A program made the position numbers and the translations under genes. Under the pieces are notes generated by a model. The model saw only the letters and a program-made list of their open reading frames with translations, had not been told where the DNA came from and ran no database searches. Of a stretch of 64,000 bases of DNA, positions 2,495 to 29,630 are shown piece by piece. Within the stretch, counting starts at the first letter, position 1; each line of letters opens with the position of its first letter. Origin of the DNA: a bacterium (GTDB taxonomy: Bacteria > Patescibacteriota > CPR2 > UBA1875 > JAJYID01); NCBI GenBank assembly GCA_021796415.1, contig JAJYJC010000002.1, positions 7,983 to 71,982 of the forward strand. Reading direction: 5' to 3'.

Positions 2495-2504
2495 GTTCCA
2501 CCTC

Positions 2505-2861
2505 CTAAACTTCATCGGGTGGCACTGGCCAATTTTCGTAGCCACTGCCGACCATGACCAATGTGATCTGCGGGAAAGCGTCGAATCTCTTCCAGAGAGA
2601 TTCGAACGCATCCTCTAGTTTTCCTTCAAGGTAGACGAGATCTGTATACATTTCAACCCAAGTTCCTGATACCCCTTCGTACCATTCGAAGTTCTCATCC
2701 AGATAAATATCTCCTGGACAATCCTTTTCCGACCAAGCGATAACAGACTCGAGAAACTTTATCTGTTCCTCGCGAGTTAACATCTTGGAGAGTTTCGCCC
2801 TGATGTTGAGTCCATCCGGGTCGAATCTCTCGTCAAGCTTTATCTCGAATGAGTGCGGCAT
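2505..2861 (-). CDS. hypothetical acidic protein (118 aa)
   Basis: ATG preceded by aaaggagcagac. Confidence 0.45.
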   Translation of the reverse strand: MPHSFEIKLDERFDPDGLNIRAKLSKMLTREEQIKFLESVIAWSEKDCPGDIYLDENFEWYEGVSGTWVEMYTDLVYLEGKLEDAFESLWKRFDAFPQITLVMVGSGYENWPVPPDEV

Positions 2862-3024
2862 GTCTGCTCCTTTGATATTTTTTCCAGAGTAAAATTTGAT
2901 CAGAGACCTTAAGGCCTATAACCAAATAAAACCCTGGAAGTTTTCAAGGTTCAAGATTTCTAATCATAACATAAAACTTGTCCTATGTAAAGCCCGAAAA
3001 GCCGAATTTTCTATTGGAATTCCT

Positions 3025-3543
3025 TTATATCTCCAGAACAGCTGTTTCTTTGATATCAATACTGCCTTTAAAAAGAATATGAGGTATTTTATAAAAAAGC
3101 AGAGGTCTTTCGTTGGTTAAATACTTTTCTCTGTAATACTTTTTTGTTTCATATCTGAGCTCAGAATATTTGTCTAGTTCATTTGGATTAAATCTGATAA
3201 TTTCTTTAGGGTTTAATCCCGGACCATCCGTGAAGTATAAATAAAGTACCGTTTTATCCGGATTAAGCAGTTTGGGATCAATCTCGAGAAACTTACCATG
3301 AAATTCATGATTGATTTCCTTGAAAACCCTTTGAATTTCTTTCGGATGGACTGGTGAGAAATGGAGAACATCATTCCATTTGCAATTTAAGATTGGTATT
3401 ACTTCATCAAGTAAATGCTCTCTGCCTTGATATTTCGTGACTTTCTTTTCATAAATTTTGGGATAAATCTCTTTTAGTTCATTTAAGGGATAGAGAATAT
3501 CTCCCTCCATATCTTTTGGCAGTTGATGATATAGATAATTCAT
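3025..3543 (-). CDS. hypothetical protein (172 aa) in an AT-rich (~33% GC) islet
   Basis: ORF only. Its composition differs from the flanking DNA. Confidence 0.4.
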   Translation of the reverse strand: MNYLYHQLPKDMEGDILYPLNELKEIYPKIYEKKVTKYQGREHLLDEVIPILNCKWNDVLHFSPVHPKEIQRVFKEINHEFHGKFLEIDPKLLNPDKTVLYLYFTDGPGLNPKEIIRFNPNELDKYSELRYETKKYYREKYLTNERPLLFYKIPHILFKGSIDIKETAVLEI

Positions 3544-3552
3544 AGCAACTTC

Positions 3553-4470
3553 CTAGTGTAGACTATCTATCTTTTTAATATTTTCTTCCAAGTAGCTTTC
3601 ATTCAATTTATTTGTAACAAAATTATATATCGGCCAGGAAGTGAAGACTAAGGCCGATTTAAGAACCCTGACCTCTGATTGTGATAATCTTCGAACAGTT
3701 TGATAGGCACTGAGATAAGTCTGCATCTCGTTTGCTGTAAAGACAGCCTTATTTACAAGGCAGAAATGCTTAATCGCCATCGACAAATCGATTGCAAAGA
3801 TGTTTCTATCAGAGAAGTCAAAATCAATGATTTTCAACTCTTTACTTTTCGTATTATATAGAATGTTTACTTTGCCAATATCATTATGACAGATACCATT
3901 CGGCAATTTGTCAAAATTCTCCCTTATATACGACAATTCAGTCACACCTCTATTAAGCAGATTTTTAAGAAATTGAGTTTGTGATTTCTTTTCTATTTTT
4001 CTAAAGTTCATTTCGTAATCAATAAATGTCAGCTTATGTCTCTTTAGGCGATTGAACTTTATTTCACTGGCAACATTGTGTAGTTTAGCTTGCGTTTTTG
4101 CCACTTCTCTGAGAACAATGATATCCCATGTTTGCTTCTCATGATGTTCAAAGTAGGGAATAACATAGGTAAACCGTTTGTCGGTAATCTTTGTAATATA
4201 TTCACCTTGCTTGTTTTTCGTAAAAGGAATGACAGGGAGATTCCTTTCATAACAAATTTTGAGGTACTTTGCTGTTGAATTTAGTGAGTAAAAACTTCGA
4301 GAATAATAGGCGCTCAAAGCATAAGGATAAGGACTCTTGAAAATATATTGTCTGTTCTGGGCTTTAATTATCGCTAGAAAGTGATGATCGGTAGTTTCCC
4401 ATTTTTTAATAACCTGCCAAGTATCAAAATATTGCGACAAAGTTCTGTTAACTAGTTTATCGTTAATCAT
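3553..4470 (-). CDS. protein-kinase-fold phosphotransferase (APH/choline-kinase-like)
   Basis: Catalytic-loop motif CHNDIGKVNILYN (HxDxxxxN) and IIDFDFS (DFG-equivalent). Start at MINDKL preceded by ggagag, with ATGA overlap to the upstream gene. Confidence 0.55.
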   Translation of the reverse strand: MINDKLVNRTLSQYFDTWQVIKKWETTDHHFLAIIKAQNRQYIFKSPYPYALSAYYSRSFYSLNSTAKYLKICYERNLPVIPFTKNKQGEYITKITDKRFTYVIPYFEHHEKQTWDIIVLREVAKTQAKLHNVASEIKFNRLKRHKLTFIDYEMNFRKIEKKSQTQFLKNLLNRGVTELSYIRENFDKLPNGICHNDIGKVNILYNTKSKELKIIDFDFSDRNIFAIDLSMAIKHFCLVNKAVFTANEMQTYLSAYQTVRRLSQSEVRVLKSALVFTSWPIYNFVTNKLNESYLEENIKKIDSLH

Positions 4471-4856
4471 CTTTTTCTCTCCAGTTCTTTTATAGCTTCT
4501 TTGATCGAGGCAACTATTATACCTGCTTTCTGCACGAAATCTAAAGACCAATCCTGCCTTTGTTTATCCCAAATAATAATTAAATTTTTACAGGTTTCGC
4601 CAGGATGCTCTGTATTCAAGGCTAAAAAATATCCCACTTCTATCCAGGTTCCTTCACAAGGGGTAGTCCCTGGATTTGCTATAAGAATATCAGCTTCTGT
4701 AATTGCTTTTAGATCATCGGGGAAGAATGTATCGGGAGAAGCTTGATCTGAGTCAAATTCCCAGTCATGAAATTCAAAACCAGAAACTTTTTTAATTCTT
4801 TCTTTCCAATCGCCTGCATATTCACTTGAAAGTCCTGCTAAATAAACTTTTTTCAT
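4467..4856 (-). CDS. nucleoside 2-deoxyribosyltransferase-like protein
   Basis: N-terminal MKKVYLAG...W and ILIANPG...EVGYFLAL resemble the NDT/Rcl fold. TATAAT lies immediately upstream of the ATG, so the mRNA may be leaderless. Confidence 0.45.
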   Translation of the reverse strand: MKKVYLAGLSSEYAGDWKERIKKVSGFEFHDWEFDSDQASPDTFFPDDLKAITEADILIANPGTTPCEGTWIEVGYFLALNTEHPGETCKNLIIIWDKQRQDWSLDFVQKAGIIVASIKEAIKELERKR

Positions 4857-4925
4857 AGGGAAATTATAACACAAAAATGATAGATCATCGTATAAATAAT
4901 GCTTAATTTGCGGTATAATCTAGTT

Positions 4926-5456
4926 ATGGATAAAAAAATAGACATCATTTCAATAGCTGATGATGTGGCATCTTTGTCAGTAAGATCGATTTTGGAATTC
5001 TGGGGCATTAAGGTTAATATTCATTATGTTGCCAAATCACAGGACCTGGTCGATATTTTTAAGAAAGACAGTTTATCTCAAAATCTTCTTTTAATGTGTC
5101 ATGGAGTGGAAGAAGGAATTCATCTGCCTGAACTCGATCCCGCAGTAGTCAAAACTCAACCTTATGATAAGATATTAACTTCTGATAATCTTGGTGAATT
5201 TCTAAAACTAAACGGTCAAATAGCGGTAAGTACCGGGTGTAAAACCGGCACCAAAGCCTTTGCTGATACTTTTCTGAGTAAAGGAGCGAAAGAGTATATA
5301 GCGCCTGGCAGTTATCCCGAGGGAACAGCTAGTTTGTTCTTCACAGTTAATTTCTACTACTTTCTGCTAGTAAAGAAATTGCCGATCAAAGAAGCATATA
5401 CCAAGTCAAAGCTTATTGATAATGAGACAGAGATGTTTGAACTTTTTAGGAGATAA
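4926..5456 (+). CDS. hypothetical protein (~176 aa)
   Basis: ORF. TATAAT lies 7 nt upstream of the ATG, so the mRNA may be leaderless. Contains MCHG and STGCKTG (a possible His/Cys pair), but no confident family assignment. Confidence 0.4.
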   Translation: MDKKIDIISIADDVASLSVRSILEFWGIKVNIHYVAKSQDLVDIFKKDSLSQNLLLMCHGVEEGIHLPELDPAVVKTQPYDKILTSDNLGEFLKLNGQIAVSTGCKTGTKAFADTFLSKGAKEYIAPGSYPEGTASLFFTVNFYYFLLVKKLPIKEAYTKSKLIDNETEMFELFRR

Positions 5457-5671
5457 AAATAGCAGCAATAGGCACAAGCTCAAGGGTATTGTTTCAGTAT
5501 TCTAGAAAAAGCTTATTTCATTAATTTCCCAAACCAGTTTTAATCTGTGGCTTCATTGAAATCAAGCTCCGAATTTGTTATACTTATGTTCACTATAGAG
5601 TAGCGCAACTTGTACAATGCTGTACCAAAAGGGTATGGCTAAAATATTTTCCGACACAAGGAGGTGACAAC

Positions 5672-7669
5672 ATGAGTCCTGTGGCTACTGAGGAAAAGGA
5701 TTTAATAGCTGCTTTACACGGCGAAAAGCACCAAACGGCAAGAAATGAACTGGTTGAGAAATATCAACCGTTAGTTCGTTATATTGCCAATAAACATGCT
5801 GTAAATGCTGAATACCTTGATGAGCTTATTCAAATCGGATCCATAGGGCTCATAAAGGCAATTGATCGATTCGATCCGTCAAAAGGTGTAAAAATCTCTA
5901 CCTATGCTACCTACAGAATTAAAGGTGAGATCAAGGATTACTTTCGTAATTCTGAACATCGGCTCTTGAGACCTTCCAGACAACTACATGAACTAGCTGT
6001 CAAGCTAGAAAATGCAAGGCAGACTCTCACGAGCACTCACCACAAACCTACGATCACTGAACTGGCTGAGTTTGTCGGTGTCTCTACGAAAAAGGCAGAA
6101 ACTGCTCTTAGCTTGCAAGTAAGTGCGCTTTCTCTTGATGATATAGGTCAAGATGAAAGTAGTGGTCAGACACTAACGGATATTCTCGGCAAAGAAGATG
6201 GAGCATTCTCGCAGCTAGAGTACTCCATGACACTTGACTTTCTGAACTGCTCTGCGCTGAGCCAACGGGAGTTAAGGGTCTTGCATCTGAGGTTCTACGA
6301 AGACCAGTCCCCGACAGAAATAGCAAAGTTGTTAGGCTGCTCTCAGTCTAACATCACCCTGATTATTAAGAAGGCCTTCATCAAACTTCTTGGCAGCACA
6401 AATAGGTCACTTAACTCTGTTTTGCCAGCTTTTAGCTTGGCGAGCTCCGATTTGAGTTTGACTGAAAGTGAAAAAGCTCTAGCACAAGAGGCAGTAAACG
6501 CCTTGGATTATCTAGGCAACGAATCCAAGACTGATGTATTAGTGCAAGAGCTTCATGCCAGAAGAATATCACTGGAAGCCCTGTTATTTGCCCTGAGAGC
6601 TAAATATGTCAAGTTCATAAGCAATGGGGGTAATGGGACTTGGCGAGTTTTACAACCAACACTAACGCCCTCGAGCTTTCATAAGATGTTTGCGGATGAT
6701 CTGGCTTTTATGGACAGGTTACTGCTGACTCTCTTAAAGCATGGTAACGGAGGGATGGAAAGGAGAATTCTCAGAGAAACCCTTAGAAACCAGCCTGGAT
6801 CTCTACGGCTACCCGAGTATGTTGTATTTGCACAATTGCTCGGAGATACTGCTAGGCGTGGTTTTGTCGAAGTGCAGGGAAGTGCAAACTCTGATCTTGT
6901 AATTCCGCTAATCACTTTAAGTGATATCTTCGAGAAGTACAGGAAAAGAGCACTCAATCAGGAAAGGCAAGCACAGCAAAAACGGTTACTAAAACCAAGC
7001 ATCAATGATCCGCGGTTTGAACAGTTACTTGCTCAGCCACTTTCCAGTATAGCAAGGTTCATGACGGTGTTACTGCAGTTCGGCTCGAATGGAACAACTC
7101 GTCGGAACCTTCGCAAGATTCTCTCTCAGAAAAGCAACGGATCGAGCTTCGATATGAGAGATTTCACACGAACAGTGTATAAGGCTCAAGATAAGGATAA
7201 CTGTTTCGAGAAATCTCTGATTGAAGTTATACCGGCAAAGAATCAAGCAGAGGAGGTATTTCGGCCCCTAATCAGATTGGATGACCTTATTGAGAAGCTG
7301 CCTAAAACTAAGGCAAACCACAACCAGCACAAAGCAACCTGCGATAATAACCCTCTTTTCGATGAGCTGGCTCAAATGCCACTCAGCCGGCCTGAAAAGG
7401 TGTTGGTGGTCTTATGGCAATTCGGACCTGAGGGGACTGATCGCAAGACCTTGAGGGAGACAATAAAAAACGAGGTCTCTAATCTACAAGTTAGCAGCCA
7501 CCATTTCTCCTATGCTCTTTATATGGCTGTCCACAATAACAATCGGTGGGGACAACTTGTTGAGATAAGAGACGCCTTAACGCCAGATGAACAAGTCATC
7601 TATCCCCTCGTAACCCTCGAGAATTTGTGTGTAAAATATCAACTCCCAAAAGGAGGTGTCGGCGAATAA
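5672..7669 (+). CDS. sigma-70 family sigma factor (SigB/F-like regions 2, 3 and 4) with a ~410-aa C-terminal extension
   Basis: Region 2 (YLDELIQIGSIGLIKAIDRFDPSKG...TYATYRIKGEI). Region 4 HTH (LSQRELRVLHLRFYEDQSPTEIAKLLGCSQSNIT). SD aaggaggtg upstream. The C-terminal part has about four copies of a ~55-aa repeat (LLQFGSNGTTRRNLRKIL / VLWQFGPEGTDRKTLRETI / LLKHGNGGMERRILRETL). Confidence 0.75.
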   Translation: MSPVATEEKDLIAALHGEKHQTARNELVEKYQPLVRYIANKHAVNAEYLDELIQIGSIGLIKAIDRFDPSKGVKISTYATYRIKGEIKDYFRNSEHRLLRPSRQLHELAVKLENARQTLTSTHHKPTITELAEFVGVSTKKAETALSLQVSALSLDDIGQDESSGQTLTDILGKEDGAFSQLEYSMTLDFLNCSALSQRELRVLHLRFYEDQSPTEIAKLLGCSQSNITLIIKKAFIKLLGSTNRSLNSVLPAFSLASSDLSLTESEKALAQEAVNALDYLGNESKTDVLVQELHARRISLEALLFALRAKYVKFISNGGNGTWRVLQPTLTPSSFHKMFADDLAFMDRLLLTLLKHGNGGMERRILRETLRNQPGSLRLPEYVVFAQLLGDTARRGFVEVQGSANSDLVIPLITLSDIFEKYRKRALNQERQAQQKRLLKPSINDPRFEQLLAQPLSSIARFMTVLLQFGSNGTTRRNLRKILSQKSNGSSFDMRDFTRTVYKAQDKDNCFEKSLIEVIPAKNQAEEVFRPLIRLDDLIEKLPKTKANHNQHKATCDNNPLFDELAQMPLSRPEKVLVVLWQFGPEGTDRKTLRETIKNEVSNLQVSSHHFSYALYMAVHNNNRWGQLVEIRDALTPDEQVIYPLVTLENLCVKYQLPKGGVGE

Positions 7670-7734
7670 ACGGCCAGTAGTATTTCTAGCTGGCCGTTTT
7701 ACTTGCGCTTGAAGAAAACATGGTACTAAAGATA

Positions 7735-8421
7735 CTAGCTCTCCAAGCTTTCCCAAGGGGGAATTTTACATTCATCATCCTTCGATTCTGATCGTACATC
7801 TTTGATATTTGCCACTCTTTTTGGAAATGCTATGCCCGAGGACTCTTTGTATTTATTTCGATATTCAAAAGCTTCCTGCCCCACATTAATCTGAATTTTT
7901 TGAAGATCAGGATTGAAGATAACAACTTCAGCAATGGTGTCCGGACTTGATTGGAACTCCCTTAATGACCATACGGGGAAATAAATATCTTGCTCTCTCA
8001 AGTATTTGTTAATAGCTTGATAATCAACCCCATCCTCTGTAAGTAAGTGCACTAAGAGGATATAAGTGGCAGGGAAATTTTGTTGTAGTTTTGTTCTTAT
8101 CAACTGGTCTAATAATAATTCTGGCGAAGATCTGTAAGTAGTTAATTCTACTTGAGTTATATCCATAGTTCCCGAATTAGGCTGCATGAGTAGAATATCA
8201 GGTGGTTCATCAAGTGGTAAACGAATATATGTAGGTAAATTACGAAAATTACTCAATACAAATGCTATCACTGCAGCTATTCTTGCTTCTCGAGCTTTTT
8301 GATATCTGGGATTTTTTTCTAGCTTATCTTGACCTATCGAAACAGCAAGTTCATCCAAATGCATAAAAACATTTGTAGGTGAATGCCATCTTTTATTAAA
8401 CTGCGAATTTTTCATATACAA
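7735..8421 (-). CDS. hypothetical protein (228 aa), AT-rich islet
   Basis: ORF only. Confidence 0.4.
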   Translation of the reverse strand: MYMKNSQFNKRWHSPTNVFMHLDELAVSIGQDKLEKNPRYQKAREARIAAVIAFVLSNFRNLPTYIRLPLDEPPDILLMQPNSGTMDITQVELTTYRSSPELLLDQLIRTKLQQNFPATYILLVHLLTEDGVDYQAINKYLREQDIYFPVWSLREFQSSPDTIAEVVIFNPDLQKIQINVGQEAFEYRNKYKESSGIAFPKRVANIKDVRSESKDDECKIPPWESLES

Positions 8422-8423
8422 AA

Positions 8424-9365
8424 TTATGTTACGTTTTTATCAATTATATCTACAAGAGAGTTAAAACCCTGCATGCTATCACGAAAATAATCCATCAGTT
8501 TATCTGCCATTTGATCTCCATGACTGTTATTGTGATTCTTCTCATCTGTGGCTCTCACTAAAGATATATTCATAAGCTGTAGTCTAATATTTTCACGATT
8601 GACGGGTAACTGTTTCTCAAATTCTTTAGCGTATTTCTCTTGCCAGTCAGGATGTGACCAATTTAATGCCCATGGATAAGTCAAAAGGGCTTCTAAGGGT
8701 TGTTGAATACCGTCCCAATCAATCAATACTAATCTCCCTGTGCTCAGCCTTATAACATTCCTGGGATTAAAATCACAATTACTCATTATCACTTTTTGCC
8801 GTCCCTCACATTCTCGCCATAAGTTATCTGCCTCTTTTCTAATATTCGTTTCCTCTGATGATTTAATTAAGTTCATCTCCAAAGCTCCAGTAAATCTTTC
8901 CCAAAATCTGACTTCTTCGGCTTTTGCTTGATAAAGAAAAACATCATCTTTTTGTAAAAGATCTTCTACATTAACTTTTATCAGGTCTTTAACAATTTTA
9001 ACCATATCTTCCGCAAGCAGCATATCAGATGTATTAAAGTCGAATCTATTACCTCCATAATATGGCAAAAGTATATAGCTACCATTTGCTTCATTAGTGG
9101 AGTAAACGTGGTCTGCTTTTGGCAAGTTTAAAACAGTAAACTCCTCTTTAACTTGAGGTAAAATATCTCTATAACACCTAGGTTCAAAGGAACCAAAAGG
9201 AACATATTTTAAAAGATGGGTAATTTCTGAGTCATTTGCACAATTAAATTTAAATATCCGGTTACTTACATTGTCAGTAATTTCTTCAACAAATTCCAAA
9301 CCAAAATCTTTTTCAATTTGATTTGCAATTTGGACGAAATCTTTTGGTTTTTTGATGGTTTCCAT
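8424..9365 (-). CDS. kinase-fold phosphotransferase-like protein
   Basis: CDFNPRNVIRL and LIDWDGI resemble APH/CotS catalytic and DFG-like motifs. Confidence 0.45.
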   Translation of the reverse strand: METIKKPKDFVQIANQIEKDFGLEFVEEITDNVSNRIFKFNCANDSEITHLLKYVPFGSFEPRCYRDILPQVKEEFTVLNLPKADHVYSTNEANGSYILLPYYGGNRFDFNTSDMLLAEDMVKIVKDLIKVNVEDLLQKDDVFLYQAKAEEVRFWERFTGALEMNLIKSSEETNIRKEADNLWRECEGRQKVIMSNCDFNPRNVIRLSTGRLVLIDWDGIQQPLEALLTYPWALNWSHPDWQEKYAKEFEKQLPVNRENIRLQLMNISLVRATDEKNHNNSHGDQMADKLMDYFRDSMQGFNSLVDIIDKNVT

Positions 9366-9450
9366 GCTCTTGATTATATTGTTATGTATACAAACTGTAA
9401 AATCTTACAAAAACTAGCCTTTTAAAAGCTCTTATTATGCCTTTATCTGC

Positions 9451-9479
9451 TTGACATGTGTATATTAGTGAGGTATTAT
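9451..9479 (+). promoter_or_regulatory. sigma-70-like promoter (TTGACA, 17-nt spacer, TATTAT)
   Basis: Near-consensus -35 and -10 hexamers with optimal spacing, read directly from the sequence. Confidence 0.5.
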
Positions 9480-9486
9480 TAGTTCG

Positions 9487-9613
9487 AGGTATGCAATAAT
9501 AGCTTTCGAAGCGCTGAGATGTTCCCTCGGAGCATCCGAGACTAAAGTCTCAGAACACCACTTCGGGAGACGCTGCCTCCCAAAAAACTTAAGCCGTTGG
9601 CTTGGGTTTTTTA
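9487..9613 (+). ncRNA. candidate small RNA (~125 nt) between a consensus promoter and an intrinsic terminator
   Basis: No ORF. Internal hairpins ctgaga...tctcag and gggag...ctccc. Terminal hairpin aagccgttggctt followed by a T6 run. Confidence 0.3.
9588..9613. terminator. bidirectional intrinsic terminator
   Basis: Hairpin ttaagcc-gtt-ggcttgg flanked by A6 upstream and T6 downstream. Confidence 0.5.
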
Positions 9614-9614
9614 T

Positions 9615-10262
9615 TTAGCTAAATAGTTCCTTACCATCGCCAATTATATTATTTTTAAGGATCTTGAAATATATTTTCCCATGCTTCTTGTCCTCTAGAT
9701 AATGTGCTATACAACCCGTTATCCAGTCAGCTATTTGAATATTTGCACTGGTAGTAGAATCAACCATCTCTATTTGAATAAGAGTATTTTTCGACATCTT
9801 AGGTAAGAGCTGAGCCTGTAACAATGAATTGAACTGACTTCTTTTGATGCCTTTTAAATGTCTCTGGTCGCAAAATGCTCTAAACTCCTTGTCCGCTATT
9901 GGCAAATACATTTCCAGTGTATCTCCTATAATCTGCGTATAGAGTTCCCCGGCCTTGATTTTGCCTTTATGAATAAACTCTTCGGGAATATTTTTCCTTT
10001 TAAGATAAGAATACCTAATTCTTACATCCAAGTCAGCGATGTATTGGACGGTTTTGATCCTCAGTTCATCTTGAATATTTACGTCAGAAAACTTAACCTC
10101 AGGTTGATTTCTCATCTTGCGAGGAAACTTTTCTTTGTGCCATGACCTAAACCTTTTCTCCGTGCGCCTTGGGTCACCAACGGTAAACGAACCAACTACA
10201 AAATATTCACCATCTTTTGATTTGTTAAATTGTCCGCTCTCATCAATATAAATATATGGCAC
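9615..10262 (-). CDS. DUF3800-like protein
   Basis: N-terminus MPYIYIDESGQF matches the DUF3800 hallmark (IYIDESG). Confidence 0.5.
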   Translation of the reverse strand: MPYIYIDESGQFNKSKDGEYFVVGSFTVGDPRRTEKRFRSWHKEKFPRKMRNQPEVKFSDVNIQDELRIKTVQYIADLDVRIRYSYLKRKNIPEEFIHKGKIKAGELYTQIIGDTLEMYLPIADKEFRAFCDQRHLKGIKRSQFNSLLQAQLLPKMSKNTLIQIEMVDSTTSANIQIADWITGCIAHYLEDKKHGKIYFKILKNNIIGDGKELFS

Positions 10263-10387
10263 TTATCCTCCTTGTGTAGATTTATTGACTGAATAAATCT
10301 CTCTTAGAGCTTATATTTTACTCCTTTTGAGCTTCAAAATAAAGGTAAAAAGTGCTTAGCAACTTGGTTTTTGCATTCCAATTTAAA

Positions 10388-10480
10388 TCAAAATCAGCTA
10401 TAATAAGTACTCAAATTAGCCGGATGAGTTTGGGGGTAACCCTAAGCTTTCAAAGCTTGCAACCTTGAAAAGGAGAAGAG
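10388..10480 (+). promoter_or_regulatory. conserved promoter/leader module (copy 1): caaaatcagcTATAATaagtactcaaattagc ... tttgaaaaggaga
   Basis: The 33-nt block is nearly identical to the one at 14381-14414. TATAAT is at 10399-10404. Confidence 0.5.
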
Positions 10481-10481
10481 A

Positions 10482-10730
10482 ATGAAGGCTCGTGTGCGCT
10501 TTAATGCAAATAACTTAAAAAGGCCGCTAAGTCCTTTCGATTGGAAATGCCTTTTGTGGGGCACAACACTGTCGTTGACAAGCGTAGTTGTTATGTTCTT
10601 TGCAGCATTCTTTCAATTGCAGACAACTCATCCGACAATGGTCCAATGGATTACTCCGATGCCGGTTTTGATCGGTATAGGGTTAATGATTTTTGTCTCA
10701 TCAAAGACGCATTGGAAAGGGAGTGAGTGA
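10482..10730 (+). CDS. small membrane protein paralog 1 (82 aa)
   Basis: SD aaaaggagaag. Two hydrophobic helices. Confidence 0.55.
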   Translation: MKARVRFNANNLKRPLSPFDWKCLLWGTTLSLTSVVVMFFAAFFQLQTTHPTMVQWITPMPVLIGIGLMIFVSSKTHWKGSE

Positions 10731-10984
10731 AGATGGAAAGCAGTATTGCAGTTGTTGCAGGCCGCTTGCAAAAGAAGAGGCGAAAGATTGACCCGCTTTG
10801 GTATTTGGCGGTGGCTGTCTTCTGCAACTTCATCATCATTGGGTGTCTCGCTTATGGAATACCCATGGCTGATACAGCGATCGGGAAAGCTATCATCACC
10901 GCAAGCGTAACGCCTTGCCTTATCGCAGCGGTCTGTGTATGGCTTGGTGTAGGAGGATTAATCTCAGAAAAACGACGGAGGTGA
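10727..10984 (+). CDS. small membrane protein paralog 2 (85 aa)
   Basis: Repeated start context gggagtgagtgaagatgg. Two TM helices. Confidence 0.55.
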   Translation: MKMESSIAVVAGRLQKKRRKIDPLWYLAVAVFCNFIIIGCLAYGIPMADTAIGKAIITASVTPCLIAAVCVWLGVGGLISEKRRR

Positions 10985-10991
10985 ATGAAAG

Positions 10992-11261
10992 ATGGTGTCA
11001 AAGGAAGAGCTCAAAAAGATCAAAAAGAGCTGGCGCAAAGCCTCTTATGGCGGTTTTCTTGTTGCTATGGTCGCAGGGGCAATTCAATATTTCTCTGTGT
11101 TGCATCTCGTCCTGGCGGATGAGAGAACTCTCGGGGGTTTCATAATACTGATTCTCCTCGTGGTATCCGTTGCCTTTATACCTTTCAGTCTGCTTTATGG
11201 CATTGTATGTGCCCTTGTCTCAATATATCCCGAGAAGGCTTTCGGGGAAAACGGGAGGTAA
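10992..11261 (+). CDS. small membrane protein paralog 3 (89 aa)
   Basis: Start context ggaggtgaatgaaagatgg. Two TM helices. Confidence 0.55.
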   Translation: MVSKEELKKIKKSWRKASYGGFLVAMVAGAIQYFSVLHLVLADERTLGGFIILILLVVSVAFIPFSLLYGIVCALVSIYPEKAFGENGR

Positions 11262-11268
11262 ATGAAAG

Positions 11269-11514
11269 ATGGTAACAAGGGGTGAATCTTTTAAGGCTCG
11301 TTATGGCATGAAGTTCAGCACTGTATATTGGTTAATAGTCGTTTTTTGTCAGACGCTCGTTCTGGTAATCGCGGTAGCCTTGATGTCATTTGATGTCAGT
11401 CGGGTGAACTTGACTGCATTGACGGGTATCATTCTGGTGCTGGTTGTGCTATCGGTTTGCTTTGCTATCGGCGCGCTTTATGCCGCCAAGGATGAGCGAA
11501 AACCAATCGAATAA
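11269..11514 (+). CDS. small membrane protein paralog 4 (81 aa)
   Basis: Start context gggaggtaaatgaaagatgg. Two TM helices. Confidence 0.55.
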   Translation: MVTRGESFKARYGMKFSTVYWLIVVFCQTLVLVIAVALMSFDVSRVNLTALTGIILVLVVLSVCFAIGALYAAKDERKPIE

Positions 11515-11525
11515 GAAAGGGGTGA

Positions 11526-11714
11526 ATGACGATGGGACCAGTCAAGGTTCTTACAGGAGACCGTTTGCTTTTTCTTGCGGCTGCCTTTGCGGCATTTGCC
11601 GTATTTGCAGTTGTTGCCGATAAGGTCTACAGTTCTCTTATGTGGGGGATCTTTTCAGTGATAGGTCTGATCGGTGAGGCTTTTTGCGTACTTGTGCTTT
11701 ACAGGCGAAGATAG
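11526..11714 (+). CDS. small membrane protein paralog 5 (62 aa)
   Basis: Start context aaggggtgaatgacgatgg. Two TM helices. Confidence 0.5.
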   Translation: MTMGPVKVLTGDRLLFLAAAFAAFAVFAVVADKVYSSLMWGIFSVIGLIGEAFCVLVLYRRR

Positions 11715-11891
11715 CCTCAAACGTTCAGTATGGGAGAGGATGTGGATTTTATATCCGCATGCAGTACCTCTCCTTTTTTCTTTGATATCATAAGTCTGCT
11801 ATCTCGCAATTTCCATTGTACACTTAAAAAACTGGAAGTTGGTAATGTGAGCACGACTTCTGTATAATATATTTATAAATTAGGTTCTTTT

Positions 11892-12557
11892 ATGACAAAT
11901 GAAGTGACAAAAAATGAAACAAAAACAGACCCAAAGGGCCAATTGAGGGAATTGACCAATGAGGAAATCACTGCGATTGGAGAAGAGAGAGAAAGTTTCT
12001 ACAAATTATATAGTGACACTGTTCGAGAATATGGCGATTCAGCAATAAATCTATTGTTAAGATTAATTGACTTTGGTTATAAAATTGCTCAAATCTCCGG
12101 AGTAATTGCTGGATTTGGTTTCGTAGCAATCAGCCAAGTAAAAAATGTGTGGCTATTCCTTTCAGGGGAATCTCTGTTAATTTTTGTTATTATTTACGGC
12201 ATATTCAAAGTAAAAAACATATATGAGAATAATTTAGATAATGTCAATAAATCAATGACTAAAGCAACTGCTGCATTTGAAAATAAAAGTAAAATACACA
12301 TCGAGATGTATCAGGAGCTGGCAGACAACTACACCTCAGACGGTAAAACCTCTTTGCATGGCGCTTACTTTGGAACAAAAATAATTGAAGCCAATGATAA
12401 GCTTTTAAAAACCTTTGATACGAAAGAAATTGACCCCAAAAAAGATAACTTCCTCACGAATATGTTAATCATCCTACCAGTAGGCGCTACCCTGCTTATT
12501 CTTTCGTTCTTTATTAGCTGGAGCATGGTTATTAATTTAGTACATCTTTTCTTATAA
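11892..12557 (+). CDS. hypothetical membrane protein (221 aa)
   Basis: ORF with internal and C-terminal hydrophobic segments. Confidence 0.4.
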   Translation: MTNEVTKNETKTDPKGQLRELTNEEITAIGEERESFYKLYSDTVREYGDSAINLLLRLIDFGYKIAQISGVIAGFGFVAISQVKNVWLFLSGESLLIFVIIYGIFKVKNIYENNLDNVNKSMTKATAAFENKSKIHIEMYQELADNYTSDGKTSLHGAYFGTKIIEANDKLLKTFDTKEIDPKKDNFLTNMLIILPVGATLLILSFFISWSMVINLVHLFL

Positions 12558-12642
12558 AACTTTAAAAGATAATGAGGCAAACTATATCGCACCGCCCCAC
12601 TATCAATATCTAAAGACGCCAAAATTTGTTATAATTTCCCTT

Positions 12643-13095
12643 ATGAATACTTTAATAGTCCTTACCGCAAAATATCTATACCTAATCATTGTCTTGATTG
12701 CCATAATTGTTTTCTTGAAAGCAGATAAGCAGGATAAGGTTAGACTCATTAAACTGGCAGTTATAGCGGGTCCCTTAGCTTTAATCATGGTTTTTATATC
12801 CAGTCATCTTTTCTACGACACTAGACCTTTTGTAGTTCAAAACATCCAACCCTTGATTCCTCATTCCCCAGACAATGGTTTTCCATCAGATCATACTTTG
12901 ATTTCAATGCTGGTTGCTCTTAGTATCTATCGAGTTAAGAAGAATGCTGGTGTCTTGCTTGCTATTCTTGCACTAATAGTTGGCACTTCAAGAGTACTGG
13001 CACATATTCATTATCCGGTTGATATCTTAGGGAGTATTGTCATTGCAATGATTGCTGTGGGACTAGCTTCACTTCTTTTTAAAAAACGTAATTAA
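12643..13095 (+). CDS. PAP2-family phosphatase (undecaprenyl-/lipid-phosphate phosphatase-like)
   Basis: PAP2 motifs PSDHT (PSGH-like) and SRVLAHIHYPVD (SRxxxxxHxxxD). Confidence 0.65.
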   Translation: MNTLIVLTAKYLYLIIVLIAIIVFLKADKQDKVRLIKLAVIAGPLALIMVFISSHLFYDTRPFVVQNIQPLIPHSPDNGFPSDHTLISMLVALSIYRVKKNAGVLLAILALIVGTSRVLAHIHYPVDILGSIVIAMIAVGLASLLFKKRN

Positions 13096-14380: not shown

Positions 14381-14483
14381 CAAAATCAGCTATAATAAGG
14401 TACTCAAATTAGCTAGATAAGGTTGGAGGATAGGACTCTAACCTTTTTGAAAAGCTCGAACTTTGAAAAGGAGATGTATTCTC
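14381..14483 (+). promoter_or_regulatory. conserved promoter/leader module (copy 2)
   Basis: caaaatcagcTATAATaaggtactcaaattagc plus tttgaaaaggaga, matching copy 1 at 10388. Confidence 0.5.
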
Positions 14484-15034: not shown

Positions 15035-15396
15035 TGTCATATATTCCGCTTGTAATTGGAGAAAGGCGGGGACAAGAAAAATGTCTTGTCCCCGCCACAG
15101 GGGACTTTTTGAAAAAAAGAGTCCTTTTTTCTTTGGGTAAAAAGTGCTCAGCAAAGATCGTTTCTGCGATACATCTCCGATTATTGTGTATACGATAGAT
15201 ATTCCTTGCGATTTTGTTTAGTTCGGCTTGATGAAGAGGCTGCCAAGAAATAATCTTGAGATTCGGTCCCATCTGCTCAAAGCTGGCAGGTAGTCCCGCA
15301 TTACCGGTTGCAGTAAACGTTAAAATATAGTATAATCTTTTTAGTGTATAGAGGGTCCACAAGAGTGTGGACTTATTTATTGAACATTGAAAAGAG

Positions 15397-16923
15397 GTGA
15401 GACTAATGGGTAGAAGGGGTAGGCAAAGGATATGGACTGAGGAAGTTGTCATCAACACGCTTAAATCTCTGAAAAAGAATGGCGAACCGGTTAACACGCA
15501 GTACCTGATTAACAACCACCGATCATTGCGTTCGGCTATGGTGAAGAGATTCGGTTCCTGGGAAAAAGCTGTTGTTGCAGCCGGGCTAGATCCCAAAAAG
15601 GAACGAGCTAAAAACCAACCTACTAAGAGCAATAATGCCCGGAAAGAAGCAGTGGTCAAGACTACGCCTCAGTCTAAACGGAAATCTTCCAGGAAATGGC
15701 GTGGTACTTACAAGCAATGGAGTAAGGATAAGATCATTGCCCAGTTGCATGAAATCAAGCTCAACGGAGAAGCCATCAGTTATAATTCATTGAGACAAAA
15801 TGGCTACAGTGGCCTTGCGGCTGCAGCTTGCCGTTACTTCGGTTCATGGGAAAAAGCAATCATAGCGTCTGGTTTTGATCCCGACCAAGAAAGCTTGGTT
15901 AAGAGATCTGGAAAGCCTTCTGAAAGTTGGGATAAAGACAAGGTCATTTCTAGATTCAAAGAGATCAAAGCCAAAGGCGGCAGTATCAACTATAAGGCCA
16001 TACAAGAAAATCATTATGGTCTTTGGAGTGCGGCTTGTTACTACTTTGGTTCCTGGGAAAAGGCGGTCACTGTTGCTGGCTTTAACCCCGATGAGGAGAA
16101 GCTGTTTCAGAAATTTGCGCTGAAGAGGAAGATAGGAAGACATCCCTTGGCCCCTTCAGAGGAATATGAGCGATCCTTAGTAAAGCAAGGCAAGCTCAAT
16201 GTTCTCTTTCCAGCCATGAGACAGCTTAGAGAACAATTAGGACGAGCTGCGACAGACGTCGAAATTGCACATTTCCTCAAAAAGTCGGTGGAGGAGATTG
16301 CTAATTGGCAATCAAGCAGAGAGAGGCTAATCCTCTCTTACCTGCCACTAGCAGAGAGCTATGCAAGGCATTTTTATGAGCATCAAGTCAAGGTAAGGCA
16401 TCTGACTTCTGACAATAAGTACAACAGAGAAGAATTCAGGGCTTTTGGCAGTCTATGGCTAGTTGAAGTTATGGAGGAATTCGATTGGGGCGACGAATTC
16501 GGTGGTTTTTCTGGCTATTTCAAGGTAGCATTTGAAAGGAGGATATATTACCGATATCTGATCAAGGAGATCGAAAATCCTATCATATCATTTGACTATG
16601 AAATAGAGTCTGGGCGAGATGGTAGCAGAATGATCCTCGCGGATATAATTGCTGACCCTCGGTCTCTACCAGAACCAGAATACGACCCAAAACAGTTATC
16701 CTTCATAAAAAGCGCCCTTAATCAACTGCCGGGAAGTCTCAAGCATGCACTTATGTGGGATCTTGGCATGGAATTTCATGACAAGACGCCCGCGGAGTTT
16801 GCAACTTTTCTGGGGGTTGCCATTGGAGACATAGACGAGCTCATCAAAACTGCTATTAGGAAGTTCTCAAGTATAGTTTTTCAACCCGGACTTCCTGACG
16901 GCGATCAGGCTTTAGCCTCATGA
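15397..16923 (+). CDS. sigma-70-like protein with three N-terminal ~55-aa repeats
   Basis: C-terminal HTH LKHALMWDLGMEFHDKTPAEFATFLGVAIGDIDELIKTAIRKF (region 4-like). Central segment LILSYLPLAESYARHF...FSGYFKVAFERRIYYRYL (region 2-like). The N-terminal repeats share W..EKVI...KEIK..G..I.Y..L..N...L..A...YFGSWEKA...AGF[DN]P. Confidence 0.5.
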   Translation: MRLMGRRGRQRIWTEEVVINTLKSLKKNGEPVNTQYLINNHRSLRSAMVKRFGSWEKAVVAAGLDPKKERAKNQPTKSNNARKEAVVKTTPQSKRKSSRKWRGTYKQWSKDKIIAQLHEIKLNGEAISYNSLRQNGYSGLAAAACRYFGSWEKAIIASGFDPDQESLVKRSGKPSESWDKDKVISRFKEIKAKGGSINYKAIQENHYGLWSAACYYFGSWEKAVTVAGFNPDEEKLFQKFALKRKIGRHPLAPSEEYERSLVKQGKLNVLFPAMRQLREQLGRAATDVEIAHFLKKSVEEIANWQSSRERLILSYLPLAESYARHFYEHQVKVRHLTSDNKYNREEFRAFGSLWLVEVMEEFDWGDEFGGFSGYFKVAFERRIYYRYLIKEIENPIISFDYEIESGRDGSRMILADIIADPRSLPEPEYDPKQLSFIKSALNQLPGSLKHALMWDLGMEFHDKTPAEFATFLGVAIGDIDELIKTAIRKFSSIVFQPGLPDGDQALAS

Positions 16924-24934: not shown

Positions 24935-27002
24935 TCCGGAATTTAGTTTACTTACCGATCCTGAGCAGGAAAAGCCTGTAGAGGATAAGCATCAGGAAGA
25001 AAAAAGCGAGACTCTCGCTCCGATTGCGGAGGATGAAACCTCGGTTTCATATCTAGGGGTAAGATTAGAAAAAGGGCATGTGCCAAGCCCCTTTATACCA
25101 GAGAGAGATAAATATACTGACTATATAAATGATCGATTTACCCTGGAGCTACAGCAGAAGATTGCCATCGGCTTTCAGTCGGGCGACCCTACTCTTATCG
25201 AAGGCGGGACTAGTATCGGTAAGACTACAGCAGCCAGAAAGATGTGTGCGGAACTTGGCTGGGAAGTTCATTATGCTAACTTGAATAAGGCCACGGATGT
25301 TGAAGATTTAATGGGCCGATATATTCCAAATCCTCATCGAACCAAACCTGATGATCCCGAGTTCGTTTTTGCCGATGGAAGAGTTACGGCCGGCCTAAGA
25401 CAGGAAGAAGGAAAAATAAAAGTTATCATCCTTGATGAATATAATGCGGCAGCGCCAAACATTGTAATCCGCCTGCATGAGGTACTAGATGCCCTTGAGC
25501 GTGATGGAGATGTTGTGCTATCGGAAGATGCCTCAGAAACCGTTCCTGTATCGAAAGATAAGACGAAATTAATTGCCCTCACTAATCCGCCCGGAAAAGG
25601 TTACTTTGGTCGTGAACCGCTAGATCCGGCTCAGTTAAGAAGATGGGTCTACCAGAAAGAAGCGAGCAATTTACCCGAAAATACTTTCTCTTTTTCAACC
25701 AAAAGTCTCTTTGGCTTGGTCTCGGAAAATGGCGATGTTATTCCCGAAGAAGTTTACCTAGAATCTCATGAAGACACTCTTTCTTCTCAGCAAATTGCTG
25801 AAATTCCCGGTATTAGCGAAGTGGAGGCAAAGTATGAAGAGTTTCATAGGGCAGCGAAAGAGCTTTTGAAAAATAGAACCATTGCTGCCGATCAACCGCA
25901 ACAGTTTACTTTTGATGATAGAATGGAGCCAAGACGGGTACGAGACTTTGTAATGAGGTTTTACAGCGGAGATATCAATGAAACTTTTCAGCAAGCTCTA
26001 AGATATTATTATTCGAATAAACTAGAGTCAGACGAAGACAGGCAGAAGATTGAAGAGCTAATCTCTCATGTAGGATACACTCCTCAGCCCGACTCAAGAA
26101 GGTTGGGTCTTGAGGATGAATCACGCCCAGAGGGAGTTGGCCTAAGAGATCAAGTCGAGATCGGCATAGAAGATATTTTGCAGGACCCGGCCATTCCGGA
26201 TTCAGTCAAAGAGGTTCTAAGAGTTGAGGGGGTAAAGTTTTCTGAGGCAAAGGAAATAATGAACCAAGATTTTATCGGTCCAGACGAGATTAAAAAAGCT
26301 TTTGGTTTAGAGGTGGATAGAGTACCAGATATTCCCTTTTCAAGAAGCGAACTGGAAAGAGCTAAGGAACTCGATCAAATGCTTATATATAGAACGGGTA
26401 CTGCTGCCCGAGGCGAGCCGATGACTATGGAAAAGATAAATGGCCTTCTTTCCGGCAAGACTAAAGATGGCGGAAAGATATTTTTTGATACTGATTGGTA
26501 TAAAGATGAGGCATTTTTTAAGTCTGAAGCAATCAAGGAAGGATGGTCTCTTGTGTCTAAGGAAGTTATATCTGAGTCGACCAGCAAGAACTATCTGGAG
26601 CAAACCGAGACAATGGTAGATTATCTTAGGAGTAAAGTTTTTGCAGGAGGCGATGTGCCAGAGGAATATCAGGAAGCAATTGGCCAATTTGAAAGCCAAA
26701 AAGATGAAATTTCAAAATTGATAGAAAGTAACTGGAAGAAAGCGGCTGAAAAACTAGAGGGTCTTTCCATTACTCACATGACCAGACAAAGACCGGTTGA
26801 AGCTATCTATGACTTAGTTGCTGTTTATGAGAATACTGATGACCATCTACTTTCTAACAGATATACTTGGACTTCCGCGCGTGACTCTGGCGGCAAGCTG
26901 GTCCGTGTGGGCTACTTCGATGCCAGGGGCGTGCGTGTCCACGGGGGCAGTCCCGACGATCGGTATGACAATCTGGGCGTTTCTTTCTCCCGCAGTCAGT
27001 GA
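24930..27002 (+). CDS. AAA_5/MoxR-like ATPase fused to a C-terminal DGR variable (target) domain
   Basis: Walker A GGTSIGKTTAARKM. Walker B VIILDEYN. Sensor 1 LIALTNPPG. Arginine motif LDPAQLRRW. The last 113 bp before the stop is VR1. The start is uncertain (24864-24930). Confidence 0.7.
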   Translation, partial: SSPEFSLLTDPEQEKPVEDKHQEEKSETLAPIAEDETSVSYLGVRLEKGHVPSPFIPERDKYTDYINDRFTLELQQKIAIGFQSGDPTLIEGGTSIGKTTAARKMCAELGWEVHYANLNKATDVEDLMGRYIPNPHRTKPDDPEFVFADGRVTAGLRQEEGKIKVIILDEYNAAAPNIVIRLHEVLDALERDGDVVLSEDASETVPVSKDKTKLIALTNPPGKGYFGREPLDPAQLRRWVYQKEASNLPENTFSFSTKSLFGLVSENGDVIPEEVYLESHEDTLSSQQIAEIPGISEVEAKYEEFHRAAKELLKNRTIAADQPQQFTFDDRMEPRRVRDFVMRFYSGDINETFQQALRYYYSNKLESDEDRQKIEELISHVGYTPQPDSRRLGLEDESRPEGVGLRDQVEIGIEDILQDPAIPDSVKEVLRVEGVKFSEAKEIMNQDFIGPDEIKKAFGLEVDRVPDIPFSRSELERAKELDQMLIYRTGTAARGEPMTMEKINGLLSGKTKDGGKIFFDTDWYKDEAFFKSEAIKEGWSLVSKEVISESTSKNYLEQTETMVDYLRSKVFAGGDVPEEYQEAIGQFESQKDEISKLIESNWKKAAEKLEGLSITHMTRQRPVEAIYDLVAVYENTDDHLLSNRYTWTSARDSGGKLVRVGYFDARGVRVHGGSPDDRYDNLGVSFSRSQ
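26878..26990 (+). repeat. DGR variable repeat VR1 (113 bp)
   Basis: Matches the TR at 29518-29630 with 13 substitutions, all at TR adenine positions. Confidence 0.85.
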
Positions 27003-27085
27003 TACTTTGAAAATTGATTTTTGAAACTTTGATACGCCGAAGGCGTCGGACACAAAATTTTAACAGAAGGTAATAAGGATAAAAA

Positions 27086-28066: not shown

Positions 28067-28123
28067 TACTTTGAAAATTGATATTTGAAACTTTGATACG
28101 CCGAAGGCGTCGGACACAAATTT

Positions 28124-29194: not shown

Positions 29195-29512
29195 AAAACC
29201 TACAAGTTTTATCTTGCTTTATATTCCACAAATCAGTTTTTACCAAAGAGAGATCGATATACTCTTGGGGTGAAAGCCGAAAATATTAGTTTGGAGATTC
29301 TTGAAACGTTATATTTAGCCAATTCTAAAGCTGGCAATATCCGCCTAGAACTGCTAGAAAAAGCCGATGTGAAGTTAAAAGTTCTCCAAGCAGTCATACG
29401 CCTTTGCCACGATACAAAAGCGCTTGATCAAAACAAATATCTTGCTTTGCAGTCTGCATTGCAAGAAATAGGGAAAATGCTTGGAGGTTGGATAAAAACT
29501 ACAAAAAGTTAG
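29132..29512 (+). CDS. Avd-like four-helix-bundle accessory protein
   Basis: Similar to the Avd / 23S-rRNA-intervening-sequence four-helix-bundle family (…LPKRDRYTLGVKAENISLEILETL…, C-terminal EIGKMLGGWIK). Lies between the RT and TR on the opposite strand. The start may be the internal Met at 29147. Confidence 0.55.
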   Translation: MIKQTMTTTPDNRFSDISIIHKTYKFYLALYSTNQFLPKRDRYTLGVKAENISLEILETLYLANSKAGNIRLELLEKADVKLKVLQAVIRLCHDTKALDQNKYLALQSALQEIGKMLGGWIKTTKS

Positions 29513-29517
29513 ACTTC

Positions 29518-29630
29518 GGAGAAAGAAACGCCCAGATTGTCATTCCGATTGTCGGGACTGTTCCTGTTGACATTCACGCCCTTGGCATCGAAGTTGCCCA
29601 CATTGACCAGCTTGCCGTCAGAGTCACGCG
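29518..29630 (-). repeat. DGR template repeat (TR, 113 bp, sense on the minus strand)
   Basis: The reverse complement aligns base for base with VR1 and VR2. Every mismatch is at a TR adenine (17 of 27 adenines vary across the two VRs). Variable codons are mostly AAY. Confidence 0.85.

Follow-up and report, generated by a model that had tools for sequence, protein, structure and literature searches.

Sigma factors of the SigB/F type ordinarily depend on an anti-sigma kinase together with a STAS partner. The fusion of extra domains to a sigma factor is, to our knowledge, well documented for the extracytoplasmic function (ECF) group only. Tandem winged helices are found in proteins of other kinds, among them plasmid Rep (WH1-WH2, iteron-binding), SelB (four winged helices), TFIIEβ, RPC34 and Rpc82. 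We are aware of almost nothing that is known about the control of transcription in Patescibacteria. Here we describe a 665-residue protein, P0001, encoded in a 64,000-nucleotide stretch of DNA from an uncultivated, ultra-small Patescibacteria organism (GenBank assembly GCA_021796415.1, contig JAJYJC010000002.1, positions 7,983 to 71,982; hereafter the window). The protein joins a sigma factor of group-3 type to a C-terminal extension that contains three repeats predicted to fold as winged helices. A complete group-3 sigma factor combined with a tandem array of a new winged-helix domain is, as far as we know, previously undescribed; our search of the literature found neither a group-3 sigma factor with a winged-helix extension nor an unusual sigma architecture in Patescibacteria.

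A sigma factor with a long C-terminal extension

Regions σ2, σ3 and σ4 lie in order within residues 1-240 of P0001, each above its Pfam gathering cut-off (Table 1). The top NCBIfam match is the SigB/SigF/SigG model TIGR02980, which scores below threshold (169.7 bits against a curated cut-off of 234.35), and the best solved relative of the sigma part is σF in its complex with SpoIIAB (PDB 1L0O, E 7.5e-29). On this sequence evidence, residues 1-240 are a complete group-3 sigma factor, as an earlier note made from the DNA alone had proposed in describing a complete SigB/F-sized sigma. The long extension that the same note had seen past region 4 indeed runs for about 425 further residues. Its remark that ordinary alternative sigma factors stop after region 4 agrees with the 120 closest homologues of the sigma domain, mostly SigB/F proteins of Actinobacteria and Thermoleophilia with 38-42% identity, all of which are 247-289 residues long.

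The σ4.2 recognition helix of P0001 is atypical. It reads SQSNITLIIKK, whereas the 120 homologues and a second family member, P0005, have SQMHVSRLIR(K/R), a motif that is 100% conserved in the 120; the invariant Arg is Leu in P0001. The group-3 signature ISQMHVSRL is accordingly not matched and reads CSQSNITLI. Because P0001 fails the curated SigB/SigF/SigG cut-off and lacks the σ4.2 signature, we place it by sequence in the σ70 family as group-3-like and not as an equivalog of SigB, SigF or SigG.

The open reading frame is uninterrupted, with no internal stops, and the same 665-residue product is called on three assemblies: the NCBI metagenome-assembled genome (MAG) GCA_027334665.1 and Logan assemblies of two SRA runs. 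The neighbour genes are the same in all three assemblies, and a 17.7 kb overlap between a contig of GCA_027334665.1 and the window is identical. The same sigma-plus-repeats architecture is present in P0005, an independent protein of 605 residues whose sigma domain is 36% identical to that of P0001. The earlier note had allowed for a frameshift or a misassembly, and with an identical product in three assemblies and a second protein of the same architecture, a frameshift or a chimeric fusion of the sigma gene is effectively excluded. A broader version of this explanation, in which the gene is the product of a chimeric assembly or of a frameshift that fused two genes, or else a decaying pseudogene, could draw on the divergence of the sigma domain (170 bits against the TIGR02980 cut-off of 234), on the atypical σ4.2 helix, and on the fact that the window joins regions found on separate contigs of the NCBI MAG. 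Those contig junctions are more than 29 kb away from the sigma gene, the identical product with the same neighbours comes from at least two sequencing runs, the independent P0005 shares the architecture, and the intact reading frame is preceded by a strong ribosome-binding site, a promoter and a conserved leader, all of which makes an artefact or decaying gene exceedingly improbable. The junctions fall at about 36766, where contig 1 of GCA_027334665.1 ends, and about 46215, where contig 14 begins; the intervening ~9.4 kb of the window was not found on either of these two contigs.

Within the extension, three units are mutually homologous (residues 326-440, 439-555 and 553-665; pairwise BLASTP E 8.6e-11, 4.1e-10 and 1.3e-16). 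The earlier note had counted about four repeats of ~55 residues, and this count has to be replaced by three units of ~113 residues. The motif on which it was based, [QH]FG[SP]xGT[TD]R, is present in strict form in repeats 2 and 3 (at residues 469 and 583) and in a looser form in repeat 1 (at residue 358). The motif itself thus stands, but it recurs at about residues 358, 471 and 585, with a period of ~113 and not ~55. The segment between the linker and repeat 1, which we call R0, was considered as a fourth repeat and rejected: residues 241-335 gave BLASTP E values of at least 0.5 without shared boundary residues, and an hhalign probability of 0.2 against the repeat profile. R0 has a relative of its own, because its residues 266-326 match residues 26-86 of another family member, P0004 (BLASTP E 8.9e-13), and it has no PDB sequence match. 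Its topology, α-α-α-β-β, comes only from a low-confidence single-sequence AlphaFold model of the whole protein (pLDDT 37), in which the pattern is suggestive of a small winged helix. The earlier note had also envisaged that the extension might match a known fused anti-sigma domain; it matches no known anti-sigma family and nothing in Pfam, NCBIfam, PHROG or PADLOC.

The winged-helix repeats and their family

The repeat alignment consists of 15 units from the five proteins of the family, and AlphaFold was run with this alignment on unit 2 of P0001. The resulting model has a mean pLDDT of 87 and a pTM of 0.80, and its predicted topology, α1-β1-α2-α3-β2-β3 with a β-hairpin wing, is that of a winged helix (Table 1). 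We are confident, on the basis of this model, in describing the predicted repeat unit as a winged helix with one additional helix at either end. Among the interpretable Foldseek neighbours in the PDB, almost every one is a winged-helix protein or domain, and most bind DNA: the ORC1/Cdc6 winged-helix domain, ArsR, Fur, MecI/BlaI, MepR, ScpB and RTP. Neighbours in the viral structure library BFVD are likewise overwhelmingly winged-helix. As far as the fold is concerned, the model and these neighbours uphold the suggestion in the earlier note that the extension consists of winged-helix units.

Sequence comparisons place the repeat outside the described families. When the 15 units were compared singly with Pfam, they gave isolated matches below threshold, the best of these to MarR (E 0.0028). 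About half were to winged-helix families (MarR, MCM4_WHD, HTH_29, SarA/Rot, TFA2_Winged_2 and Fe_dep_repress). Outside this unit-by-unit comparison, the last unit of P0005 came near to MarR at E 6.7e-5, just under the cut-off. A profile search of the PDB with the repeat units returned nothing better than E 0.6, and a PHROG profile search returned no match. Since the fold neighbours are winged-helix but weak, and no Pfam, PHROG or PDB family is matched, the repeat unit is a new family inside the winged-helix fold. Its chemistry is predominantly basic: 14 of the 15 units have an isoelectric point (pI) of 9.1-11.2, the linkers between units are basic, and K24, R39 and R43 are near-invariant basic residues. 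Helix α3 is moderately basic and varies between units.

A profile of the three repeats was scored exhaustively with HMMER against 1.84 billion representative proteins, drawn from about 15 billion predicted ones. Seven proteins were retrieved at E<=0.001. One is a false positive, the 2306-residue leucine-rich-repeat protein P0006, which matches over a 30-residue stretch, and one is a 60-residue fragment; the remaining five are real and all come from candidate phyla radiation (CPR) metagenomes. The combination of sigma factor and winged-helix repeats is confined to two of them, P0001 (sigma, R0 and three repeats) and P0005 (a complete sigma and two to three repeats; Logan SRA assembly SRR33270670). 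P0002 (629 residues; Logan SRA assembly SRR28401835) and P0003 (560 residues; a 'candidate division WS5' MAG, annotated as hypothetical) have a common N-terminal domain that is not a sigma factor, followed by four and three repeats respectively, and neither has an adjacent sigma gene. P0004 (443 residues; JGI metagenome 3300028459) consists of an R0-like module, two repeats and an unmatched C-terminal domain, and its gene is divergently transcribed beside an ECF sigma gene. A link with a sigma factor, by fusion (P0001 and P0005) or by adjacency (P0004), thus exists in three of the five members. P0005 and P0003 occupy the same slot, TGT…DnaX-DnaB-[X]-GtrA-PMT_2-GT2, one with a sigma head and the other with a different head. 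Because the repeats occur behind non-sigma heads, and P0003 is found in the P0005 slot, the array probably has a function that is independent of the head, for example target binding.

Other searches agree with this narrow distribution. A word-index homologue search retrieved only P0001 itself when queried with the extension and nothing when queried with the 15-unit alignment; since the same index, searched with the sigma domain, missed both P0001 and P0005, its negatives are weak, and the claim of rarity rests on the exhaustive HMMER scoring. Scans for the repeat pattern turned up no confirmed relative among species-representative genomes, JGI metagenome contigs or viral contigs, and tblastn of the extension found no match among plasmid and phage records. 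The extension is specific to this tiny lineage.

Two further observations concern the P0003 locus (L006). Between dnaB and the P0003 gene, at 7710-9853, there are two unannotated genes (275 and 388 residues) whose products look winged-helix-like by eye, and the DnaB-GtrA slot may be a hotspot for winged-helix genes. In addition, the annotated start of P0003 (RJO61463.1) falls within the conserved leader described below, at 10001-10054. The true start is probably the ATG at 10055, which is preceded by GGGGGTGA, and the deposited protein is then 18 residues too long.

Promoter, leader and genomic setting

The upstream region of the P0001 gene contains a block at 5556..5584 that we infer from its sequence to act as a promoter of the housekeeping type (Table 1). 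It agrees with the consensus at 10 of 12 positions, with the extended TG present, and the same block is found upstream of P0005, P0002 and, more weakly, P0003. It belongs to a longer element: promoter and leader together, ~110 nt, are conserved in nucleotide sequence in front of four of the five family genes (P0001, P0005, P0003 and P0002), at 5556-5671 of the window and at 6492-6606, 9939-10054 and 93-209 of loci L004, L006 and L005. With a profile of the ~115-nt block, nhmmer finds one copy for each of these genes (E 1e-23 to 1e-28) and no further copy elsewhere in the window or the other family loci, apart from a promoter-proximal half copy in front of the neighbouring 388-residue gene in L006 (E 0.008), which has TCGCAACTTGTACAA where the window has GCGCAACTTGTACAA. 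P0004 is without the shared leader. P0001 and P0005 have almost the same DNA in front of their genes, for all that their sigma domains share only 36% identity.

The minimum-free-energy structure of each of the four leaders is centred on the hairpin (-7.3 to -9.3 kcal/mol); on the opposite strand the folding is poor. In a manual alignment two hairpin pairs change on both sides, pair 6 being G-C, G·U or A-U and the closing pair A-U or C-G. From an automatic alignment of the four sequences RNAalifold recovers the stem, weakly (-4.6 kcal/mol); it scores no double change there, since the window copy sits one column out of register. Rfam has no family that matches the leader. The four sequences are suggestive of family-specific post-transcriptional or feedback control acting through the leader. 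A conserved upstream reading frame or peptide was rejected by eye, since the reading frames differ between the four loci, and GGGTAT upstream of the gene was rejected as a SigB-type autoregulatory -10 element, since the other leaders do not conserve it and the window shows no enrichment of it. The 20-nt leader motif also occurs 42 times in a metagenome-contig collection that does not contain the known JGI contig; none of these occurrences has the hairpin or a family gene downstream, and we regard them as chance hits.

The host belongs to the Patescibacteria. Its IF-2 shares 97% identity with the IF-2 of one MAG, 62% with that of a Saccharibacteria MAG and about 53% with those of other Patescibacteria. 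The sigma gene (42-45% GC) lies within a low-GC stretch at ~2.5-13 kb of the window (33-38% GC against 47-49% outside), which is embedded in a cluster resembling type IV secretion or conjugation genes and looks like cargo inserted into that cluster. A coupling-protein-like ATPase and a Replic_Relax gene lie upstream, TrbC/pilin genes and a VirB4-like ATPase downstream, and clearly chromosomal genes (IF-2, PriA) begin at about 46 kb. The immediate neighbours are two kinase-like genes, one deoxyribosyltransferase-like gene, one DUF3800 gene and several genes without a family match. No HATPase_c (anti-sigma kinase) or STAS gene was detected among the genes called within ±10 kb of the sigma gene.

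Several other features of the window deserve mention. Besides the sigma gene, the low-GC stretch (2500-13000) contains a gene for a PAP2 phosphatase, one that is deoxyribosyltransferase-like and two that are APH/choline-kinase-like, and it includes the gene at 9615-10262 (-) for a DUF3800 protein that matches the PADLOC candidate defence models PDC-M04A (E 2.5e-8) and DUF3800_VII. Directly upstream of the sigma gene, on the same strand, is a gene for a 185-residue protein without a family match (4899-5456, +); a caspase/CHAT-like His-Cys dyad suspected in it by eye (MCHG, STGCKTG) is supported by no sequence method and was rejected. A second atypical sigma-like gene at 15397-16923 (+) encodes 508 residues, with an N-terminal HNH_repeat associated with homing endonucleases (E 6.5e-13), then a Sigma70_r3 match (residues 267-309) and a weak ECF-like match below the cut-off (residues 307-490, E 0.001); it contains an internal 54-nt duplication (15550-15603 and 15838-15891). 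A promoter-like region of ~95 nt is duplicated, at 10344-10476 as compared with 14381-14474 and 15136-15154, and includes an identical 19-mer, CAAAATCAGCTATAATAAG, that contains a TATAAT box. A cluster of five genes for small predicted membrane proteins (10482-11500) follows one copy, and another copy is near 14.4 kb. Finally, 26862-29600 is likely to be a diversity-generating retroelement whose template repeat was not located: a reverse transcriptase gene (28124-29194, -) adjoins a bAvd gene, and two adjacent genes each carry a copy of a 203-nt repeat at their 3' end (26862-27064 and 27926-28128, 92% identical), 15 of whose 17 mismatches involve adenine in one copy.

Table 1 The P0001 gene, its upstream region and the predicted secondary structure of repeat unit 2 (window positions unless unit residues are stated)
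Feature	Position	Strand	Description
Housekeeping-type promoter (putative)	5556..5584	+	-35 TTGAAA 5556-5561; 17-nt spacer; extended -10 TGtTATACT 5576-5584
Motif A TTTGTTATACTTATGTT	5574-5590	+	conserved block, overlaps promoter
5' leader, ~80 nt	5591..5671	+	conserved; hairpin, invariant block, Shine-Dalgarno
Leader hairpin GCUGUACC-AAAAG-GGUAUGGC	5619-5639	+	GCUAUGC-loop-GCAUGGC
Invariant leader block GTATGGCTAAAATATTTTCC	5633-5652	+	conserved; invariant UAAAAUAUUUUCC after hairpin
Shine-Dalgarno AAGGAGGTGA	5658-5667	+	strong
Sigma plus C-terminal extension coding sequence	5672..7669	+	complete open reading frame, 665 residues
Sigma region 2	5750..5953	+	residues 27-94; PF04542, E 1.9e-18, 66 bits (cut-off 24)
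Sigma region 3	5990..6181	+	residues 107-170; PF04539, 31 bits (cut-off 25.3)
Sigma region 4	6254..6388	+	residues 195-239; PF04545, 35 bits (cut-off 24.1)
Ser/Leu-rich acidic linker	6392..6466	+	residues 241-265; by composition, pI 4.7; no domain match
R0 module	6467..6661	+	residues 266-330; matches P0004 N-terminus, unrelated to repeats
Winged-helix repeat 1 (predicted)	6662..6985	+	residues 331-438; basic C-terminal linker
Winged-helix repeat 2 (predicted)	6986..7327	+	residues 439-552; modelled unit, pLDDT 87.1, pTM 0.80
Winged-helix repeat 3 (predicted)	7328..7666	+	residues 553-665; only acidic unit, pI 5.8
Unit 2 N-terminal helix	unit residues 9-15		AlphaFold model
Unit 2 α1	unit residues 21-30		AlphaFold model
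Unit 2 β1	unit residues 37-38		AlphaFold model
Unit 2 α2	unit residues 39-48		AlphaFold model
Unit 2 α3	unit residues 57-68		AlphaFold model
Unit 2 β2	unit residues 79-82		AlphaFold model
Unit 2 β3	unit residues 91-94		AlphaFold model
Unit 2 C-terminal helix	unit residues 98-104		AlphaFold model

Possible functions and comparison with known systems

The reading that we tentatively prefer is that P0001 may be a working alternative sigma factor with a built-in basic arm of tandem winged helices that serves for nucleic-acid binding or targeting. In the holoenzyme, σ4 sits on the β-flap at the -35 element and its C-terminus faces the upstream DNA, so an array attached to it would lie upstream of the -35 element. 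In P0001 the flexible linker, R0 and the three predicted winged-helix repeats, joined by basic linkers, come directly after σ4. A tethered array of four such small helical modules would reach the region of UP-element and class-I activator contacts, where it could supply further contacts upstream or hold the holoenzyme to particular sites. It possibly also compensates for the degenerate σ4.2 recognition helix of P0001. Transcription of the gene would start at a housekeeping-type promoter with an extended -10 and pass through the structured, conserved leader, the likely point of post-transcriptional or feedback control, and the likely targets would be the surrounding type IV secretion and island genes.

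A number of observations weigh against a sigma factor with a nucleic-acid-binding arm. The Foldseek matches in the PDB are weak (best E 0.09, TM 0.50-0.52), and winged helices can also be purely protein-interaction modules. In the repeat, the wing has a neutral to acidic character and not a basic one, and the majority of the conserved residues belong to the core or may form salt bridges, so that conservation singles out no DNA-reading surface; repeat 3 is acidic as a whole. Compensation for a weak reader of the -35 element cannot be general, because P0005 retains a canonical σ4.2 helix. The search for targets was likewise negative: canonical SigB/F promoters are not enriched in the window (1 against 2.4 expected), nor are GGGTAT and GTTT-N12-17-GGGTA, no 7-mer is common to the 33 upstream regions beyond what shuffles give, and no target motif or regulon was identified.

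A bolder form of the same idea, which we consider unlikely, is that the array is a portable address module of CPR bacteria, in which three or four tandem winged helices on one polypeptide would read a multi-part code in upstream DNA or leader RNA and deliver whatever head is fused to them. A sigma factor (P0001, P0005) or another head (P0002, P0003) would then be brought to the same sites, and the choice of promoter would be set largely by the array and not by σ4. Such a protein would be sigma factor and activator in one, a bacterial analogue of the eukaryotic initiation factors with tandem winged helices.

The array might instead be a built-in regulatory domain, whether auto-inhibitory, pro-sigma-like or partner-docking, that folds onto σ2/σ4 or binds a partner until a signal or proteolysis intervenes. 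This is the established role of the C-terminal extensions of ECF sigma factors (PMC3426412, PMC7671368). It would be in keeping with a neighbourhood that, among the genes called within about 10 kb, offers no anti-sigma kinase or STAS partner, with the flexible acidic linker between σ4 and the array, and with P0004, whose repeats lack a sigma domain and adjoin an ECF sigma gene as trans-acting anti-sigma factors do. The repeats of P0002 and P0003, however, have no sigma domain or adjacent sigma gene to regulate, and three tandem basic copies are unlike the known anti-sigma domains and show no similarity to anti-sigma families; a regulatory domain is thus somewhat unlikely, in our judgment, though it deserves attention. 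A different emphasis is given by the leader. Some winged helices, such as those of SelB and La, bind RNA, and the array could be an autoregulator that binds the hairpin leader of its own and its paralogues' mRNAs and controls their translation or stability, the sigma head being incidental. The ~110-nt leader is conserved upstream of four of the five genes though the proteins share only 25-36% identity, its hairpin survives G·U and double changes and forms on the sense strand only, and it is seen nowhere else in the loci examined. These points come from only four sequences with a weak RNAalifold consensus (-4.6 kcal/mol), the leader could just as well be recognised by some unrelated factor or represent promoter sequence that was inherited, P0004 has no leader, and the attached sigma head is left unexplained, and we therefore hold an RNA-binding autoregulator to be quite improbable.

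A similarly low probability attaches to a protein scaffold, or some other role outside transcription initiation, in which the array tethers RNA polymerase or other heads to the replisome, the nucleoid or the secretion machinery. The chromosomal members are immediately downstream of dnaX-dnaB, the best fold neighbours are replication winged helices (the ORC1/Cdc6 winged-helix domain and RTP), and there are sub-threshold matches to replication initiator and replisome organiser models (BFVD) and to MCM4_WHD; the window copy is embedded among type IV secretion genes, and the wing is not basic. The fold matches are nevertheless generic and weak, the neighbourhood is the sole link to replication, and the units are strongly basic overall.

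If the array of our preferred reading does bind DNA upstream of the -35 element, promoter specificity would be built into the sigma factor itself. Ultra-small genomes with few transcription factors could profit from such a design, and synthetic biology would gain a compact part that can be programmed. The family defines a new domain, and its interchangeable heads and dedicated leader make it a small, tractable system of regulation in Patescibacteria. The window copy sits within a type IV secretion region, and this machinery is regarded as central to the way these bacteria live as epibionts (PMC12102498).

Of the described systems, the SigB/SigF/SigG sigma factors (1L0O, TIGR02980) resemble P0001 in the canonical σ2-σ3-σ4 order and in an identity of about 40% with actinobacterial SigB/F. 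P0001 differs from them in being 425 residues longer, in scoring below the TIGR02980 cut-off, in lacking the invariant MHVSR and in having no anti-sigma kinase or STAS gene seen nearby. MzaA, the sigma factor of the MZA anti-phage system (NF041931, PADLOC PDLC02203), is likewise a long sigma-70 protein with domains that are not sigma; its extra domains, however, are N-terminal, the match is weak and covers residues 12-208 only (E 5e-20 and 2e-12; 72 bits against a cut-off of 800), and no other MZA component was matched by PADLOC among 10 neighbouring proteins. The tandem winged-helix arrays of Rep, SelB, TFIIEβ, RPC34 and Rpc82 resemble the extension in having several winged helices in one chain that bind nucleic acid or position a polymerase without dimerisation, and the additional N- and C-terminal helices predicted for each P0001 unit recall the 'extended' winged helices. 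There is no detectable sequence kinship with these arrays, the fold is generic (TM about 0.5), and none of them is fused to a bacterial sigma factor. The ECF41- and ECF42-type sigma factors have an extra domain fused after σ4, as does P0001, and in their case it modulates activity in cis (PMC3426412, PMC7671368). They are group-4 sigma factors without σ3 and carry a single SnoaL-like, TPR or Cys-rich domain, for which the extension of P0001 gives no Pfam match at E<=1, whereas P0001 has σ3 and an array of predicted winged helices. By analogy, the ECF sigma factors with fused C-terminal regulatory domains may be regarded as the nearest conceptual precedent for P0001.

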